Positions 32,757 through 41,874 of a stretch of 64,000 bases of DNA are shown here, in pieces. The stretch lies in contig JADHWK010000008.1 in the NCBI GenBank assembly GCA_016783505.1, positions 627 through 64,626 of the forward strand, written 5' to 3'. The translations under genes were made by a program, and so were the position numbers. The notes beneath the pieces were generated by a model. The model was given only the letters and a program-made list of their open reading frames with translations. It made no database searches and was not told the origin of the DNA. The stretch comes from Candidatus Zhuqueibacterota bacterium (GTDB lineage: Bacteria > BS750m-G25). Within the stretch, counting starts at the first letter, position 1. Every line of letters starts with the position of its first letter.

Positions 32757-34949
32757 TCATTTCACCAAAACCATCTTGCTCGCCTTCTGAAACTCCCCCG
32801 CTTGAATTTGATAAAAATAGATACCAGATGAATGATCGGTTGCATTCCAGCTTATCTGGTGGTAACCGGCCTCTTGATGCTCATTAGCTAAGGTGGATAC
32901 TTCTCGTCCAAGTATGTCATATATCTTTAGGGTTACCTTTGAACCCTCAGGAAGCCCGTATTTGATGGTGGTTATCGGGTTGAAGGGGTTGGGGTAGTTT
33001 TGATCAAGAACGTATACGTTGGGCAAAATGCGTCCTTCATCTGCTATCCCAACGGGCTCAAATACGTGAATGGTGAAACTATCACACCAGAAGAAGTAGC
33101 CTTCACTGGCGATTGACATCTGAATAGGAATGTCATGATCTGGTGGGCAAGTATCCAAGATCTGCAGCATATAGAAACCGGATGTCATGTGTGCAGTCTC
33201 CCCTGCTACGATATCACCCCAAGATGGACCCATCGCTACCAGGTTAAAAACAGAAGTATCATTCGAACTGAGCTCAGCAGTGACATCCGTTGCGGTGGCC
33301 ATAGAACCATCGTTCTTAAGAACCGGTCTGAAGATCAGCTGCTCGCCAGGGTTCGGTATGGTATCACTTCCTATAAAGTCCAGGTCCTCATATACCACTG
33401 GACCGATGGTGGTGAAGCGGGCTAAATCATTAAGGGAAAAATAAACTCCAGAGTCCAAATCAACAGTACTGACCCCGACTATAAATTCTGTTTCAGAAGA
33501 CACTGGAGGAATAAAACAACCCCACAGGTCGTCATCCGCTTGGCCGTCACCGTGATTTCCATCATCAAACAGAGAAATTGAATCAACTATGGTACTATCA
33601 ATACTGGTAATTAGTGCATTGGCTGAAAAACTATGATTATCAGGGTTATTGAATTGAGTAGTAATTATAAGTGTGTCTATATCAGGTTGCATAAAATGAG
33701 AACTTAATTCAATGTTTTGGGCATAGATTCTTTGACTTAAAAAGCCGAATATGGCTAATTGATCCCCAATAGCTCTTTTACCTCCCTCGGACTCTCCATT
33801 TGTTAATAAAGTAATCCCAAATTGGTTTTCTGAGTCAAGTAGATAAAACATTTCCGTTCTACATCCGTAATCTGAACCGGCGTGTCCAATGTACGTTCTG
33901 GTGCCTAAAAATGGGAGGTTGTGATCGAAAACAAACCATACTAAGCCTCGAGTGGAAGATAGTGCTGGATATTGTACAGTCGTCATCAAATCAACCGTCG
34001 CACTATCTAAAATTCTAATACCATCGATTTCACCCATTTGCATATATGTGGTTAAAAACCGAGCCAGTTGTGTTGCGCTCGTTCTTAGCTGCCCATCAGG
34101 ATAGTCGGGATAACCGTAATGTTGGTAAGGGATGTAGTTATTATTAGTATAGCTGTATGGAATGGCAATATTACTTGTATCAAGACCATCTAAAAACCAG
34201 GAGGTTTCATTCATACCTAAAGGAGTAAATATATTCTCCTGGCAATAGTCTGCGAAAGGAGTATCAGCTATCGCTTCAACCAGATATCCCACAAGCGCAA
34301 GCGCATAATTACTATATTCCCATTGTGCACCTGGTGCCCAGTTATTAAATGGCCCCCATGAATAATAATTGCCGCCAGGCATGAAATAATTAACAAGAAG
34401 GCTATCTAAGGGTATCGGAGAATCACTGCCCCAGGAATATAGTGATACAATAAGATCCCAATCATTATCTATGCTCGACGTATGGGTGAGAAGTTGGCGG
34501 AAAGTGATGGAGTCATTTGGAAACGACGGATTGATTATTTGTAATTCTGGTGGCAGGTAGTTATTAATGTTGTCATCCAGTCCGAATAATCCCTCCTCCC
34601 AAAGTTGCATGAGTGCTGTAGCAGTAAACGGTTTAGAAAGTGAGGCGATTATAAATGTGGTAGTATCTGTCACCGGCTGGTTTTGTTCAATATTCGAATA
34701 TCCGTAAACACCGGACCAATAGATGTCTCCTTCCCTGATTATACAAGCGGAGACACCTGGGATATGATATTGGTCCATCGTAGCAATAATAAATGAATCC
34801 AAGGCGGCAGAATCAAGAACAGTTAAAGCTCTATCATGCTCTCGTGGTAAGTCTCTAAAAGGAATATTATTCTGAGAATATTCAAGCTGGGCGTTTGCGA
34901 ATTGTGATAGGAATGCCACTGTAGTAAAAATATTGATTAGCTTTTTCAT
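32757..34949 (-). CDS. Secreted serine hydrolase (beta-lactamase class C/PBP fold) + Ig-like domains + T9SS/FlgD-type CTD
   Basis: Signal peptide; SLSK (SxxK), YSN and HAG motifs; LFDDGNHGDG motif; QNYPNPFNP CTD. Confidence 0.88.
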   Translation of the reverse strand: MKKLINIFTTVAFLSQFANAQLEYSQNNIPFRDLPREHDRALTVLDSAALDSFIIATMDQYHIPGVSACIIREGDIYWSGVYGYSNIEQNQPVTDTTTFIIASLSKPFTATALMQLWEEGLFGLDDNINNYLPPELQIINPSFPNDSITFRQLLTHTSSIDNDWDLIVSLYSWGSDSPIPLDSLLVNYFMPGGNYYSWGPFNNWAPGAQWEYSNYALALVGYLVEAIADTPFADYCQENIFTPLGMNETSWFLDGLDTSNIAIPYSYTNNNYIPYQHYGYPDYPDGQLRTSATQLARFLTTYMQMGEIDGIRILDSATVDLMTTVQYPALSSTRGLVWFVFDHNLPFLGTRTYIGHAGSDYGCRTEMFYLLDSENQFGITLLTNGESEGGKRAIGDQLAIFGFLSQRIYAQNIELSSHFMQPDIDTLIITTQFNNPDNHSFSANALITSIDSTIVDSISLFDDGNHGDGQADDDLWGCFIPPVSSETEFIVGVSTVDLDSGVYFSLNDLARFTTIGPVVYEDLDFIGSDTIPNPGEQLIFRPVLKNDGSMATATDVTAELSSNDTSVFNLVAMGPSWGDIVAGETAHMTSGFYMLQILDTCPPDHDIPIQMSIASEGYFFWCDSFTIHVFEPVGIADEGRILPNVYVLDQNYPNPFNPITTIKYGLPEGSKVTLKIYDILGREVSTLANEHQEAGYHQISWNATDHSSGIYFYQIQAGEFQKASKMVLVK

Positions 34950-34977
34950 TTTGAGCTCCTTTTTTCAATTGAACAAA

Positions 34978-36783
34978 TTATTTGAGCAACAAAAGCTTTT
35001 TTGTATCTATAAACTCCCCCGCTTGAATTTGATAAAAATAGATTCCAGATGAATAACCGGATGCATCCCAGTATATCTGGTGATAACCGGCATCTTGATG
35101 CTCATTAACTAAGGTGGATACTTCTCGTCCCAAGATGTCAAATACCTTAAGGGTTACATTCGATTCTTGGGGAAGCCCGTATTTGATGGTGGTTATCGGG
35201 TTGAAGGGGTTGGGATAATTCTGATCCAGCCGGAAGGCTGTAGGTATCCCTACATCCACCCCGTCATCCAGGGCCAGAGGGGCATCGAACCAGGCTAAAA
35301 TCCTGGCCAGAGCGGAATCCCGTGGGGTGGACTGGCCGTAAGAGGTAATCCTCCCACCAACCGATTCAAAGGGGAAGGCGAAAAAGACCACCCGGTAGGT
35401 TTGGTCGGCGTACCGAATTCCCCCTACGGTAGACGCGTCGTGATAGATGTAAACAGCGACCGCATCCCCTTGGGGGATAACAGAGCTATTGGAAGAGGGG
35501 GGCCCGGCTCCGTTTCCTCCAAAGAGAACCAGCAACTCCCCGGTGCTGTTGGGGTCCCCGATAGGGTCGCCCGGGGTGGCGTCTAAATATCGGTTGGAAA
35601 CATAATTCAACTCATGTTGGGCGTGGAGGTATTCAGCGAAGAAGGAAGAATCCCCGATTTCGTCCCCGGCATTCTGACTGCTCAAGAATAGATTCCCCCC
35701 GCCGTCAAGATAGGCCGCCAACTGGGTCTGTTCATCAGGGGAAATGGTGCTGGAAGTCGCTTCACCCGTAAACCAGACCACCTTGGAATAATGCTGAAGC
35801 TCAGCAGACGGGGGATGCCCCTGGGTAACGTTTTCCCACCGGTCTATTACCAGCCCCAATGTATCTATGGTATTTAGATAATATTGCTCAATATCATCAC
35901 CCCCGTCGTCATCCACCAGAATAATCTCAGGACGCCCCACCATAAAGGAAAATGCCAATGTATCCCGATAATTGTCGGGTTGTGCCGTAACAATGAGGGA
36001 AAAATCCACCACGTGGGGCTGCAAGCCCCCGGCCACCGAAAAGATGAAAGGGTCAGCAGAGTTGTCGGCCACCGAAGCCGGGGGGATGAGGGGATAAGAG
36101 ACGGTATCTACTATAAAACTGATCTCAGGGTCCGGGGTGGAGAGGGTGGCTACCACCGAATCCGCCTGCTGGGTAAAGGACGCATTTCTCAGGGTCACCA
36201 CCATCTGGGCCGTCTCCCCCGGGTCGGGACGTCCGTCCCCATTGCCATCGTCGGTAATGGAATGACTGGTAAAAATAATAGCTAGGGGCAAATAGGTTTC
36301 AATAACCGCAATGATGGCGGCTTCGTAATAACCGGAATCCCCATAGCGGAGGATCTGGTCGCTGTCAATGACGGCATTAAAGGGGATGTACCCGTCCCCA
36401 TATTGCCCATAAACATCGCTCCCCTGATACAACAGAGGAAACGTAATCGGCACCGTCATATTATTAACCCAGGCCAATATTGTTTCCAGGGTTTCGCTAT
36501 TATCCACGTCTATCCCCAAAACCTGCATCCCCAGATCCTGATAAACCTGCCAGATGTTCTGTTCTAACTGTGGCAACTCCACAGTACAACCCCCTCACCA
36601 GGTGGCGAAAAAATTCAGTAGAACTAACTGATCGCTGTAATCGTAAAGGGAAACCGTGCCCCCATTCACGTCAGGCAGCGTAAAATCATCCACGTGGTCG
36701 CCGACCTGATATTGGGCGAAAACATTACCCACAGAGGCAATGACTAACGCCAAAACCAGGACTAAAAAATAATTCTTTCTCAT
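34978..36783 (-). CDS. Secreted UxxC redoxin selenoprotein with Ig-like domains and T9SS/FlgD-type CTD (601 aa, Sec at codon 63)
   Basis: Track ORFs 36595..36795 and 34978..36582 are in frame across TGA 36595-36597, giving LLNFFATW-U-GGC-TVELPQL. GGAGG RBS precedes ATG36783, and a hairpin follows the TGA. Confidence 0.88.
36567..36585 (-). promoter_or_regulatory. Putative bacterial SECIS hairpin
   Basis: mRNA ACUGUGG-AGUUG-CCACAGU; the stem starts 10 nt after the UGA. Confidence 0.7.
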
Positions 36784-36925
36784 TTCCACCTCCATCTAAT
36801 TGTTAAATCTTATTACTATTTAAATATTTTTATATGTTTGTGTAAATTAACATTTTGTATAATATTTACTTAGTTCACTTTAATCTATCCAAAAAAGTTT
36901 GACTTCTGAAATTAGGATTACACGA

Positions 36926-37010
36926 TTTAATATAGCAATAAATTTTAAAAAAGCAAGAGAAAATTTCAAAAGAACAAAAGGCCTACTCAAGATGAATGAA
37001 TAGGCCTTTA
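36926..37010 (-). terminator. Repeated terminator+promoter module, copy 4
   Basis: AGGCCTATTCATTCATCTTGAGTAGGCCTTTTGTT followed by TTGCTT...TATATT, upstream of the selenoprotein gene. Confidence 0.72.
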
Positions 37011-37357
37011 AAAAGAAAGTGGCTTAATTTCTGCAGATTAATGGATTAATTTAAAAGGGAGCAATTAGACTTACCATAATTGCTAATGATAGTTCTTATT
37101 ATCTAATCGGCGACTTTTCTCTTCATTTTTTTCTCAGGAGTATTGGAATTTGATTGAATAAGCATAACGCCTTTATTGAATAGACTCCAAGACCATGATT
37201 ATAAAGGAACGCCCAGCTCATTACCGAACCTGTTCTTCTAAAAAATGGGCGGGCTTCACAGAGTCCGCCACTACCAAAATTTTACACCTTGAATTTGAGA
37301 ATAGGTGTTCATGACTGAATCCAAGATTTATCACAAAAATTAGTCTTTGCATTTAAG

Positions 37358-39718
37358 TTATAGGTTCTTAAGGGCGCCCTCTCCTAAAATTTTATCAAGT
37401 GTACTGACCAATAAATCTGCGTTGGTATCCGAGAAAACCAATGGTGGCTTTATCTTCAATATATTGTCAAGAGGGCCTTCTGTACCAATAAGAATTCCTT
37501 CTTCTTTCATTCTTTCGATTATATAGGCTGCTTGCTCGGTTGCCGGAGCTAAAGTCTCCCGGTCAAGTACAAGTTCGACACCAATAAAAAGTCCCAGCCC
37601 TCTTACGTCCCCTATTAATGGATGTTTTGCCATTAATTGTTCAAGACCCCTTTTCATTCGATCGCCTACGCTCAAAGCGTTCTCTTGCAGCTTTTCCTCC
37701 TCAATGACATCAAGCACAGCTAAACCTACTGCACAAGAAACCGGATTGCCGCCATAGGTATTAAAATACTCCATGCCGCTGTCAAAAGATTCTGCAAGTT
37801 CCGGTGTGGTGACAACCGCCGCAAGTGGGTGTCCATTACCGATAGGTTTACCAAGTGTCACAATATCCGGGACCACTCCCTGAGTCTCAAAGCCCCAAAA
37901 ATGCGACCCGACCCGGCCAAATCCGACCTGAACTTCATCGACAATACAAACTCCGCCGGCATTCCTGACATGTTGAAATGCTTCTTTAAGATAATTTTCC
38001 GGTAATATAATCTGGCCGCCGCAACCCAACAATGATTCACAAATGAATGCCGCTACATTCTTTTGTACTTTTTGCATTCGCTCAATCGCAGTAAAAATAT
38101 GTTCCGCATACTTTTTACCGGCTTCGGAGTCGTTAGCTTTATAAATTCCTCTGTATATATCCGGCGTGATAACCTTATGAATAAAGGGTTCGGCGCCTGT
38201 TCCCCCGGGGCCATCAAACTTATAGGGACTCATCTCGATATCAGCTGTGGTTGTGCCGTGGTAGGCCCCATCAACGACAATAACATCTTTACGTTTCGAA
38301 TGAGTACGTGCAAGGCGAAGCGCAAGGTCGTTTGCTTCACTTCCCGTACAAACAAAAAAACAGACGCTTAGCGGTTCGGGCATCTTCGAGGTAAGACGCT
38401 GCGCGTATTTTACAAGGTTATCATGGAGGTATCTTGTGTTTGTGTTCAAAACCGCTATCTGTCTTTGTGCTGCTTTGACGACCTTTGGGTGACAATGTCC
38501 CACATGGGGAACATTATTGACGGCATCCAGGTAGGTATGGCCAGTGTCATCATACAAATATTGCATGGCCCCCCGAATGATCTTAAGCGGTTTTTGATAT
38601 AAAATGCTTAAGGATTTTCCAATATGCTGCTGCCTAAGATTGATGATTTGCCCATGACTCCTACCTTGCCGTTTAGGGGAAGAAGATATTTCACAAGCCT
38701 GACTGAATTCTTCATACGCGTGTTCTGGATTTAATTCTATCAATTTCCCCAGTAATTCCCACGCTGGCTTTTCGGAAACGGTTATATACTCATTATCCGG
38801 CTCGAGCTTTTTTTGATAGGCCGACATGGTTACGCTGATACAAAGCCGCGCACATATCAAGTAATAAAGCACTTCCAATTCCAAATCTGTTAATGGAAGG
38901 ACTTCATGATAACCCCTTATTATATGTTTTGCGACCGCTACTGGATCTTCCCTATCTAACATTGCATAAGTAATAGCTACGGCAAGTTCACACACGGTAT
39001 GCGTATAAACCATATCGCTAAAGTCAATTATCCCGATGAATCTTTTGCTGCCTGAATCAGATTCATCCAAAAGCACATTGTAGTCATTGGCATCATTATG
39101 AATGACACTGCTGCGGAGGCGGGGTAAAACGGGTGTAACAAACGTTTCGAATTGTAACTGAAAGTGTTCTACAAGACTCCTTCGCCGCGGATCTGTAATA
39201 TAGCAGATTTTTTGTTTGGCATGGAGGGCGTTTTTCAAATCCCACGACAAATACCTATACGCAGCTGAATGATAAAATCCTTCGAGTGTTTTATCCATCG
39301 TGCCTAAAAATTTACCGAAATTATGAAGTATTTCGGGTGTGTGTGGATCGATATCTTTTAGGAAAGTACCTTTGAGAAAAGTCAACATCCGCGCTAAGTG
39401 AGATGTACCGTTATCACTCTTTATAATAGCAATCTGTTCTCCTGATATTGTGTTACGTACACGGGGACACTCGACAGCCTTACTATACTTTGTCAGGTGT
39501 CCCATGGCCTGGTTTTGGGCATCAAGAACCTCTCTTTTCTCTGCTGGATTGGCTATCTTAAGGATAAACTCCCTACCCATGTCATCTGTGAGGTGAAAGT
39601 TTTGGTCCATATAGCTTTCTAATTGTCGGACAGATGCGTTGATACCGTACAACTCCCTGGCAAATCTCATAATCTCTTTATCAGAAAAGCGGGGGCGTGG
39701 TGATTCAACTCTGGACAT
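37358..39718 (-). CDS. APH-type kinase + class-III aminotransferase-fold fusion (hydroxylysine kinase / phosphohydroxylysine phospho-lyase-like)
   Basis: HNDANDYN and IIDFSD kinase motifs; [20 protein letters not shown] and [12 protein letters not shown] motifs. Confidence 0.85.
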
Positions 39719-39991: not shown

Positions 39992-41530
39992 TCACTTCAG
40001 CAAAACCATCTTCCTCACCTTCACAAACTCCCCCGCTTGAATTTGATAAAAATAGATTCCAGATGAATGACCGGTTGCATCCCAGCTTATTTGGTGGTAA
40101 CCGGCTTCTTGATGCTGGGCCACCAATGTGGCCACTTCCCGCCCCAGGATGTTAAATATCCTCAAGGTTACCTTTGACTCTTTGGGAAACCCGTATTTAA
40201 TGGTAGTAACGGGGTTGAAGGGGTTGGGATAGTTTTGGAACAGGGCAAATTTCACTGGCAACATCGGGTCTTCATCAATAGCCGCAATGTATGGTGATTC
40301 GAACGCTCCCATATCCGGGTTATTTCCGTTGTAAGCTGTATCAGGTAGATTTACCAAAGTATCATCCTCCCAGATGAAGAACGCTGTGCCGGCATCAATA
40401 CAGGGAGAACCTTCTTGAAGATGAAAATCTCCACCAGTAGGATCAACAAACAGCGGGTCGCCATCAATATTCCCCTCCAACCAGTTAACGATACTACTGT
40501 CTTCATTCACGATTCCATCCAATCCTCCATGCACATCCGAATAGGCAATGGTGATAGAGCTAGGCCAAGGTTCATCAAGAACAGAACATACTAGTGGTGG
40601 ATCATCCCAGATTATAGTATTTATCAGACTCAAATTAGAGCCGGCACAGCCAATTCCAGCTAGATCATTATTAGTCAACGTCACATTCGCTAAACTCAGA
40701 CTGACACCCATAGCGACAATTCCAGCTGTGTATCCGCTTATAGTGACATCCACCAACCTCATACTGGACAAACCACAGTAAATCCCAAAGCTTCCCTCAA
40801 TAGTATTTCCGCTGATAGTGACATTCACTAAACTCATACTGGAATTCCAACTACAGAGAATTTCGGTGTTAATATCACCAGCCCAGATTGTATTCCCGCT
40901 TAACATCACATTGAACAGGCTTGGACTGGATTCATTGCAGGCAATCCCACCACCCTCATTGGCCGAATTTCCGATGATGGTAACATCCACCAAACTTGGG
41001 CTAGCCATATAAAAATATATTCCCCCCCCACCTTCAGTGGCTGTATTCCCGCTTACTATTACCTTGGACAGGGTCGACCTCGAGCTTTCAAAGTAAATCC
41101 CGCCAGCTGCCGATGCTACATTATCGCTCACTATCAGGTTAGATAAACTCGGGCTCGAACCTTCACAATGAATCCCACCACCAAACCAAAATAAACCATT
41201 TGTGATGGTAAACCCATTCAATACAGCCGTGGAATCCTCTCCATTCTCAAATATCACCACACTCCCACTACTATCGCCGTCAATCACCGTCTGGGAGATG
41301 TAGGATGTGTCGCCACTAACAATAATTAACGACCCTACAACAATATCTTTAGCATTAAAGTTGATGTTCTCCACATACCGACCCGTATCCACTAAAACAG
41401 TATCACCCACCGAGGCGAAATCAATCCCCGCTTGTATTGTTGGTTGGTCTGCTGGAACATTGATGATGGTGGCGTTTGCTATGACAACCATAAACAGCCC
41501 GAAGATAAAGCTTTTAAATAATATTTTCAT
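39992..41530 (-). CDS. Secreted right-handed parallel beta-helix protein with T9SS/FlgD-type CTD
   Basis: 'IINVPADQPTIQAGID', repeated 'N.A..GGGI', 'DPLFVD...FHLQEGSPCIDAG' and NYPNPFNP. Confidence 0.85.
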   Translation of the reverse strand: MKILFKSFIFGLFMVVIANATIINVPADQPTIQAGIDFASVGDTVLVDTGRYVENINFNAKDIVVGSLIIVSGDTSYISQTVIDGDSSGSVVIFENGEDSTAVLNGFTITNGLFWFGGGIHCEGSSPSLSNLIVSDNVASAAGGIYFESSRSTLSKVIVSGNTATEGGGGIYFYMASPSLVDVTIIGNSANEGGGIACNESSPSLFNVMLSGNTIWAGDINTEILCSWNSSMSLVNVTISGNTIEGSFGIYCGLSSMRLVDVTISGYTAGIVAMGVSLSLANVTLTNNDLAGIGCAGSNLSLINTIIWDDPPLVCSVLDEPWPSSITIAYSDVHGGLDGIVNEDSSIVNWLEGNIDGDPLFVDPTGGDFHLQEGSPCIDAGTAFFIWEDDTLVNLPDTAYNGNNPDMGAFESPYIAAIDEDPMLPVKFALFQNYPNPFNPVTTIKYGFPKESKVTLRIFNILGREVATLVAQHQEAGYHQISWDATGHSSGIYFYQIQAGEFVKVRKMVLLK

Positions 41531-41571
41531 TTTAATATCCTTTCCTTTCAAATAATGGAAAGATTAAGCTC

Positions 41572-41874
41572 TCACTTCACCAAAACCATCTTCCTCACCT
41601 TCTGAAACTTCCCCGCTTGAATTTGGTAGAAATAGATTCCAGATGAGTATCCAGTGGCATCCCAATTTATCTGGTGGTAACCAGCAGTTTGATGTTCATC
41701 AACTAATGTGGCCACTTCCCGCCCCAGGATGTTAAATACCTTAAGGGTTACATTCGATTCTTGGGGAAGCCCGTATTTGATGGTGGTTATCGGGTTGAAA
41801 GGGTTATAGTGGTTTTGATACAACTTAAAACTTTCAAGGAAATTGAATAAATATGTTTCTTTAATCCCTACCAT
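41572..41874 (-). pseudogene. Orphan T9SS/FlgD-type CTD lacking signal peptide and passenger domain
   Basis: Degenerate QNHYNPFNP followed by an intact CTD; no upstream gene body. Confidence 0.7.

Follow-up and report, generated by a model that had tools for sequence, protein, structure and literature searches.

To our knowledge, characterised bacterial selenoproteins are cytoplasmic or, at most, periplasmic. Thioredoxin-fold selenoproteins with a UxxC motif have been predicted since 2004-2005, as Prx-like thiol:disulfide oxidoreductases and as thiol-disulfide isomerase-like proteins (TlpA-like, cd02966), in the work of Kryukov and Gladyshev (2004) and Zhang and Gladyshev (2005/2008) and in a 2026 review (PMC1088965, PMC2398784, PMC13188914 table 1). 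Among type IX secretion system (T9SS) cargo proteins, HBP35 from Porphyromonas gingivalis carries a thioredoxin motif and a C-terminal sorting domain (CTD), and its in vitro thioredoxin activity depends on two cysteines (PMC2907840, PMC3120885). Full-text literature searches returned nothing relevant that links selenoproteins or selenocysteine to type IX secretion or T9SS. Here, we describe a gene on the minus strand of a 64,000-nucleotide (nt) stretch of contig JADHWK010000008.1 (assembly GCA_016783505.1, Candidatus Zhuqueibacterota bacterium; the window) that is split in two by an in-frame TGA. The locus is very probably a real, mis-split selenoprotein gene, whose product is predicted to place selenocysteine (Sec, U) in the active-site motif of a TlpA/ResA-like redoxin carried on a stalk that ends in a T9SS CTD. 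Judged from its sequence, the gene belongs to a known kind of selenoprotein and differs from it, in a way new to us, in architecture and predicted localisation. An initial annotation of the window had presented the product as unlike most characterised bacterial selenoproteins; that description is overstated for the Sec-redoxin head itself, which falls in a long-predicted family (PMC1088965, PMC13188914); the T9SS-sorted architecture was not found in the literature searched.

The locus reads as one frame of 601 codons plus TAA (36783..34978, minus strand; Table 1), opened by the ATG at 36783-36781, closed by the TAA at 34980-34978 and interrupted by a single internal stop, the TGA at 36597-36595 (codon 63). 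Calling of open reading frames (ORFs) cuts the locus exactly at this TGA, into ORFs of 66 and 534 residues. The residues around it are LLNFFATW-U-GGC-TVELPQL, which places the TGA where a W-C-x-x-C motif of the TlpA/ResA type has its first Cys (W-U-G-G-C). Only the part 5' of the TGA encodes a signal peptide, and only the part 3' of it encodes the stalk, the CTD and the bulk of the redoxin domain. The initial annotation had noticed the broken but continuing frame, the position of the TGA within the CxxC motif and a 7-bp hairpin (ACUGUGG-AGUUG-CCACAGU) just 3' of it, all of which are present, the hairpin at 36585-36567. The 601-residue product that it had proposed, with signal peptide, Sec-redoxin and sorting CTD, is supported by the single frame and by Pfam matches to AhpC-TSA and Por_Secre_tail.

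The Sec assignment was examined in homologues, where Cys or UGA at codon 63 had been put forward as the informative comparison. TGA stands in this column in at least nine homologues that share the architecture and come from independent assemblies (L012, two in L013, two in L014, and L098-L101). The motifs at the column among the TGA forms are WUGGC, WUPGC, TUPGC, WUPSC and WUPPC. Three further homologues have Cys at the column, in a WCGPC motif (P0023, P0057 and L013:4431-6215). With the present gene included, the homologues found therefore comprise ten TGA and three Cys forms, and no other residue occurs at the position. Protein residues before and after the column are conserved, and in the family alignment conservation extends all the way from signal peptide to CTD. 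Ten independent assemblies with TGA at this column make an assembly error implausible. In L013, the Cys paralogue adjoins two Sec paralogues, and these neighbours provide a natural comparison of what selenium contributes to catalysis.

Family members were recovered by several routes. The protein search returned P0023 and P0057 as full-length WCGPC homologues, together with three proteins truncated by gene callers just past the motif (P0018, P0041 and P0042); the contigs that encode the truncated homologues hold, directly upstream and in frame, an ORF of 59-62 codons ending in TGA. A scan of metagenome contigs added at least four members, all with TGA. A profile scan of genome contigs with the family alignment had only generic Cys-type TlpA genes among its matches. 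That scan used one pattern that back-translates the Sec column as Cys, which makes TGA forms unmatchable, and another that lies in the domain after the redoxin; the Cys-type genes were reused as a control set. In two unrelated genomes, G021 and G034, TGA likewise occupies this position in several TlpA-like genes. The G034 genes form a tandem array (L197; C1:108500-116000) in which no fewer than three short TlpA-like genes for secreted proteins have the motif FFATW-U-P[ST]C and two fusions place an LVIVD or Ig region before a Sec-type redoxin (FFADW-U-PVC), a further Ig region and a CTD. The G021 genes (L184, L193 and L194) encode five to six proteins of 705-842 residues, in each of which a signal peptide leads into a redoxin head of the Sec type (FWQDT-U-G[GT]C or LWTST-U-GTC) and then into varied extracellular domains, with no recognised CTD.

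The fdhF element of Escherichia coli has an AGGUCU-type loop about 17 nt from its UGA. Bacterial Sec insertion sequences (SECIS) have been described as stem-loops that directly follow the UGA and are capped by a small loop containing G (PMC1088965), and the hairpins in this family fit that description. In the present gene, 9 nt separate the UGA from the 7-bp stem and 16 nt separate it from the loop, whose second base is G. A hairpin directly follows the second Cys codon of the motif in 10/10 Sec forms, and in all ten the UGA-to-loop distance is 16-17 nt and the loop (AGUUG, AGGCU, UGGU or AGUUUC) has G as its second base. Four stem versions were distinguished (ACUGUGG/CCACAGU, GGUACGG/CCGCACC, GUUCGGA/UCCGAAC and AACACCG/CGGUGUU), and across them at least two Watson-Crick pair types occur at each of the seven stem positions, a pattern of compensatory changes. 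Pairs were tabulated per stem position for this comparison; the MAFFT alignment was not used, as the differing loop lengths place the 3' arms out of register. No such hairpin was found at the equivalent position of the Cys paralogue. The segment from +10 to +48 folds at -11.9 kcal/mol, compared to a mean of -5.0 (standard deviation 2.8) in 82 Cys-type TlpA-like genes, which puts it at the 2nd percentile.

Insertion of Sec requires dedicated machinery, and the initial annotation had proposed a genome search for selA, selB, selC and selD; all four were found. The source assembly (G000), a metagenome-assembled genome (MAG) with a completeness of about 60%, comprises 2.5 Mb on 89 contigs. Its selA (573 bits) and selB (378 bits) genes lie side by side on contig C13 and selD (389 bits) lies on C74, all above curated cut-offs, and a tRNA-Sec(UCA) on C37 was identified by ARAGORN and by Rfam (68 bits; gathering score 47). 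The SelD match (C74:520-1443) forms the C-terminal end of a 748-residue open frame, and SelD is probably fused to an upstream domain of about 440 residues. A global reassignment of TGA (code 4 or 25) was ruled out, with TGA ending 302/993 long ORFs. The best match to SelA has 58% identity, and matches at about 50-55% come from KSB1, Latescibacteria, Calditrichaeota, Gemmatimonadetes and WOR-3. None of the 199,900 species genomes compared was related to the MAG more closely than 'same domain', and rpoB is missing from the assembly. The sequence comparisons suggest that the MAG represents a deep, poorly sampled lineage of the Fibrobacteres-Chlorobi-Bacteroidetes (FCB) group.

A genome-wide scan for TGA read-through gave 82 candidates, most of which look like noise, and only those with recognisable family motifs were kept. 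At least four further selenoprotein candidates in the MAG remained. Two are HdrA-like genes (C1:78575-81667 and C1:74302-76857) in which an in-frame TGA lies within DCSIUILGPKMMD and a GGUC-looped hairpin comes next; these are probably classical HdrA selenoproteins. The third (C1:103476-104918) encodes a DUF1573-like exported protein with an in-frame TGA in KPG-U-GCT. HdrA and DUF1573-type (pfam07610) proteins are known Sec families, and the PGUGCT gene matches the family listed as 'OS_HP2, pfam07610, UxC' in the Global Ocean Sampling study (PMC2398784 table 2). The fourth (C85:74722-76746; L202) is a second T9SS-tailed candidate, with a signal peptide, FTASW-U-VYCP in an Omp28-related/thioredoxin-like head, and a CTD; it carries the same β-sandwich and α/β stalk as the gene studied here, at 72% identity, and the stored protein (P0003) begins well after the TGA. 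Omp28-related proteins, to which this second head belongs, dominated the homology search. Among these, P0006 and P0007 are likewise interrupted by a TGA, in NWG-U-PGC and NWG-U-PYC, and P0051 is a Cys form.

The N-terminus of the 601-residue product combines a charged start with a hydrophobic core and a VFA-Q site, and was assigned as a signal peptide by visual inspection and from its conservation among family members. Residues 4 to 145 contain no Lys or Arg between them, so that trypsin would give no usable peptide around U63. The domain that follows matches Pfam AhpC-TSA over residues 27-147 (74.6 bits, cut-off 26; E 8e-21) and Redoxin (48.1 bits, cut-off 26.6). It contains the motif W62-U63-G-G-C66 and a cis-Pro motif, Y-I-P134; column 63 (C/U), C66, I133 and P134 are invariant in the family. 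The nearest solved structures by sequence are 2ls5 and ResA 4nmu (E 1e-13), both TlpA/ResA-like. The NCBIfam ResA model NF002854 gave 69.9 bits against a cut-off of 170, and assignment as a ResA orthologue was rejected on that score; the domain is ResA-like only.

The region after the redoxin had been annotated as two Ig-like domains. AlphaFold2 and Foldseek support one of them as a β-sandwich and show the second to be an α/β domain resembling class-I glutamine amidotransferases (GATase1). In Foldseek, the α/β domain matched the luminal domain of OST48 (E 1e-8) and PabA/GATase structures (template modelling scores of 0.61-0.67 on the target). It has LFLSSQ at the nucleophile-elbow position and FPFE where HPE would stand. 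Because the positions of the nucleophile Cys and of the HPE His read in this way, the domain is probably not catalytic and would act as a scaffold. Residues 170-601 are common to many CTD-bearing proteins whose heads include subtilisins, M1, M36-like and C1A peptidases, β-lactamase-fold proteins, Kelch/BNR propellers and others, and with such differing heads on a common region, residues 170-601 are best regarded as a generic carrier.

The C-terminal end matches Por_Secre_tail PF18962 over residues 523-597 (44.1 bits, cut-off 27; E 2.6e-11) and TIGR04183 (43 bits, cut-off 23). The MAG encodes the T9SS translocon SprA (672 bits) and the sortase PorU (776 bits). A PorV-like gene adjoins PorU, with a score of 208 bits that is below the cut-off of 250, and about 80 ORFs in the MAG bear a CTD. 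The outer-membrane sorting tail recognised in the initial annotation is upheld by the above-threshold CTD and by these SprA, PorU and PorV-like genes, and export by the T9SS is well grounded as a prediction.

These observations can be arranged into a mechanism. SelB and Sec-tRNA(Sec) would bind the hairpin downstream of UGA-63, and selenocysteine would be inserted at that codon instead of termination. The product would consist, in order, of a signal peptide of the Sec-pathway type, the TlpA/ResA-like W-U-G-G-C domain, the β-sandwich, the probably inactive GATase-like domain and the T9SS CTD. It would cross the inner membrane by the Sec pathway and the outer membrane through the SprA translocon, after which PorU would strip the CTD and the protein would be released or anchored at the cell surface. 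We infer this sequence of Sec insertion and export from the gene and its genome. U63 and C66 would cycle between the selenol/thiol and selenenylsulfide states, giving fast thiol-disulfide exchange (reduction or isomerisation) on extracellular substrates. The stalk is common to many secreted peptidases, and a role in opening disulfide-bonded extracellular proteins is for that reason the favoured guess; the redoxin may act on disulfide-rich proteins that are digested by the stalk-sharing peptidases.

Several points weigh against this interpretation. The hairpin is short, and compared with shuffles the fold of a 61-nt stretch reaches no more than z = -1.5. One stem type accounts for six of the ten Sec forms, which reduces the comparison to about four independent observations. 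Rfam, searched with permissive thresholds over 34000-38000, matched no SECIS family. The redoxin head was modelled by AlphaFold2 with low confidence, the alignment being shallow there, and the model was not used for active-site geometry. The MAG is incomplete to the extent given above, with no phylum-level relative among the genomes compared. On the side of export, PorK/L/M/N were not convincingly found in this partial MAG, where GldK/PorK gave weak matches only; a CTD indicates targeting potential and not export itself; and no electron donor is evident for a redoxin at the surface.

The last of these points bear on a reading in which the selenoprotein is real and stays in the periplasm, as a TlpA/ResA-type envelope reductase fed by CcdA/DsbD, with a CTD that is non-functional or serves for outer-membrane association. 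Characterised TlpA, ResA and CcmG proteins work in the periplasm or at the outer leaflet and receive electrons from a membrane transporter (family knowledge and PDB matches), and both the missing extracellular donor and the uncertain PorK/L/M/N would be accommodated. We nevertheless regard a periplasmic location as unlikely. The CTD is intact and scores above its cut-off in a MAG that has SprA, PorU, a PorV-like gene and some 80 CTD-bearing ORFs, the same combination of stalk and CTD carries dozens of secreted peptidase types, and a Cys-type protein with a thioredoxin motif, HBP35, reaches the surface by the T9SS route (PMC2907840, PMC3120885).

A different activity at the surface was also considered, in which the UxxC head would work as a scavenger of the peroxidase type, or would bind or reduce chalcogen or metal species (polysulfide, selenite, Hg/As compounds). 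The best Pfam match is AhpC-TSA and there are weak GSHPx matches; several newer Sec families have been proposed to handle metals or organometals (10.1101/2022.07.06.499078); and a multihaem selenoprotein is reported to be essential for elemental sulfur respiration (10.1101/2025.11.18.688581). Such a role is improbable here, however, given that W-U-x-x-C with a cis-Pro is the arrangement of TlpA/ResA and thioredoxin and not the PxxxTxxC/U of peroxiredoxins (PMC13188914), that the closest structures by sequence are ResA/TlpA-like, and that no metal- or sulfur-handling genes lie next to the gene.

A genuine stop at the TGA is very hard to credit; the locus would then be a nonsense-mutated pseudogene or would have two products, a secreted peptide of 62 residues and a protein of 534 residues begun at GTG 36582. 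In favour of a stop, TGA is an ordinary stop in this genome, gene calling with table 11 yields exactly these two ORFs and public protein sets contain only the 534-residue piece (P0002). Against it, the break would fall within the active-site motif of a thioredoxin fold and leave the downstream piece without a signal peptide despite its T9SS tail, the GTG sits inside the hairpin and lacks a Shine-Dalgarno sequence, and the same 'nonsense mutation' is present in nine other assemblies with conserved flanks, with Cys in three homologues.

The features of the locus are collected in Table 1. No terminator-like site was found between the selenoprotein gene and the downstream hydrolase gene, and co-transcription of the two is plausible. 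The initial annotation had suggested that the redoxin might fold or protect this CTD-bearing serine hydrolase. That suggestion was not sustained: the hydrolase neighbour is absent from 10 family loci, and a partnership with the β-lactamase-fold protein has no comparative support. The only notable Rfam match in the region, RefA9 (E 0.003), lies on the terminator hairpin of the upstream gene and is probably spurious. Nearby ORFs on the minus strand that also bear a CTD are found at 39992-41551, 41572-41874 and 32757-34949. The one at 41572-41874 is a 100-residue ORF with little beyond a CTD, and another nearby ORF encodes a 519-residue protein with a Chlamydia-PMP-type repeat.

Table 1. Features of the selenoprotein locus and its flanks, in positions of the window
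Feature	Position	Strand	Basis or remark
Complete coding sequence	34978..36783	-	One open frame when TGA is translated as U; alignable over its full length with 8 homologues
Shine-Dalgarno sequence GGAGG	36789..36793	-	Read directly from the sequence; 5-nt spacer before ATG 36783
Signal peptide, residues 1-23 (MRKNYFLVLVLALVIASVGNVFA), likely cleavage after VFA	36715..36783	-	Judged by eye; equivalent N-terminus in all family members
TlpA/ResA-like thioredoxin-fold redoxin, residues 27-147	36343..36705	-	Pfam, PDB sequence matches, family alignment
In-frame UGA, predicted Sec codon 63	36595..36597	-	Same column is TGA in 9 homologues, Cys in 3
SECIS-like hairpin ACUGUGG-AGUUG-CCACAGU	36567..36585	-	Folding, family comparison, pair tabulation
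β-Sandwich (Ig/CARDB-like), residues about 169-283, conserved motif DGNGDGRPDPGET	35935..36279	-	AlphaFold2 model all-β, predicted local distance difference test (pLDDT) above 90
α/β domain, class-I glutamine-amidotransferase-like fold, residues about 285-500	35284..35931	-	AlphaFold2 pLDDT above 90, Foldseek
Type IX secretion C-terminal sorting domain, residues 523-601	34981..35217	-	PF18962, TIGR04183; modelled β-sandwich, pLDDT above 90
Promoter-like site TTGAAA-16-TAAAAT, 10/12	36942..36969	-	Consensus scan only; function inferred
Terminator-like hairpin closing the upstream gene	37009-36977	-	Just before the promoter-like site; called strong
Upstream gene, 786-residue fusion of APH phosphotransferase and class-III aminotransferase	37358-39718	-	Directly upstream
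Downstream gene, β-lactamase-fold serine hydrolase with its own CTD	32757..34949	-	Pfam; 28 nt after the stop

If Sec heads on such stalks are exported as proposed, selenium-based thiol-disulfide catalysis would take place outside the outer membrane, for example in opening disulfide-rich proteins for extracellular digestion in anoxic habitats, and these proteins would form the first class of bacterial selenoenzymes to be secreted or displayed on the outer surface. Passage of a selenoenzyme across the outer membrane would carry selenium biochemistry as far as the cell surface and would raise the questions of its redox partner there and of the use of Sec over Cys. The gene seems to belong to a widespread group of T9SS-sorted selenoproteins not yet described in print, and the present instance adds a deep-branching FCB-group MAG with two different Sec heads on one common stalk, together with clean hairpin covariation. 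The Omp28-related W-U-x-Y-C head is seen both in this MAG (C85:74722-76746) and in P0006/P0007. Whether deep-branching FCB bacteria run a T9SS-delivered surface selenoproteome, with at least two unrelated Sec heads (TlpA-like W-U-x-x-C and Omp28-related W-U-x-Y-C) on one stalk, is in our view an evenly balanced proposition. In every Sec member of the redoxin family, gene callers break the gene into a ~60-residue peptide and a 'hypothetical protein', and the stored proteins of the redoxin family (P0002, P0018, P0041 and P0042) and of the Omp28-related group (P0006 and P0007) begin just after the TGA. Because Sec members are cut at the TGA in this way, the family and the selenoproteome of several candidate phyla are likely to be systematically under-counted.

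Compared to described systems, the protein shares with ResA, TlpA and CcmG (DsbE; PDB 4nmu, 1st9 and 1jfu) the W-C-x-x-C type of motif, the cis-Pro and an N-terminal export signal, whereas those proteins are Cys enzymes of about 140-190 residues that are either periplasmic or anchored at the inner membrane and rely on CcdA/DsbD for their reduction. NF041054 ('ResA-like WAxxUGC motif-containing protein') is likewise a ResA-like selenoprotein with Sec in its redox motif. Membership of that family was rejected, with a score of 23.2 bits against a cut-off of 300, a U-x-x-C motif (FFATWUGGC) in place of U-G-C, and a different length and architecture. HBP35, which is likened to the present protein by description and not by sequence, differs in having Cys instead of Sec, in binding haemin and in lacking the β-sandwich/GATase1-like stalk. 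With the Prx-like and TlpA-like selenoproteins, to whose kind the head belongs, the protein has in common a thioredoxin fold (PF00578/PF08534), a UxxC motif in which Sec takes the place of the N-terminal Cys, the abundance of Cys homologues, and a SECIS-type hairpin that follows the UGA directly and carries G in its small apical loop. Unlike those families, which are tabled by a single redox domain, the protein described here would join its Sec-redoxin head to a stalk of ~330 residues and a T9SS sorting domain.

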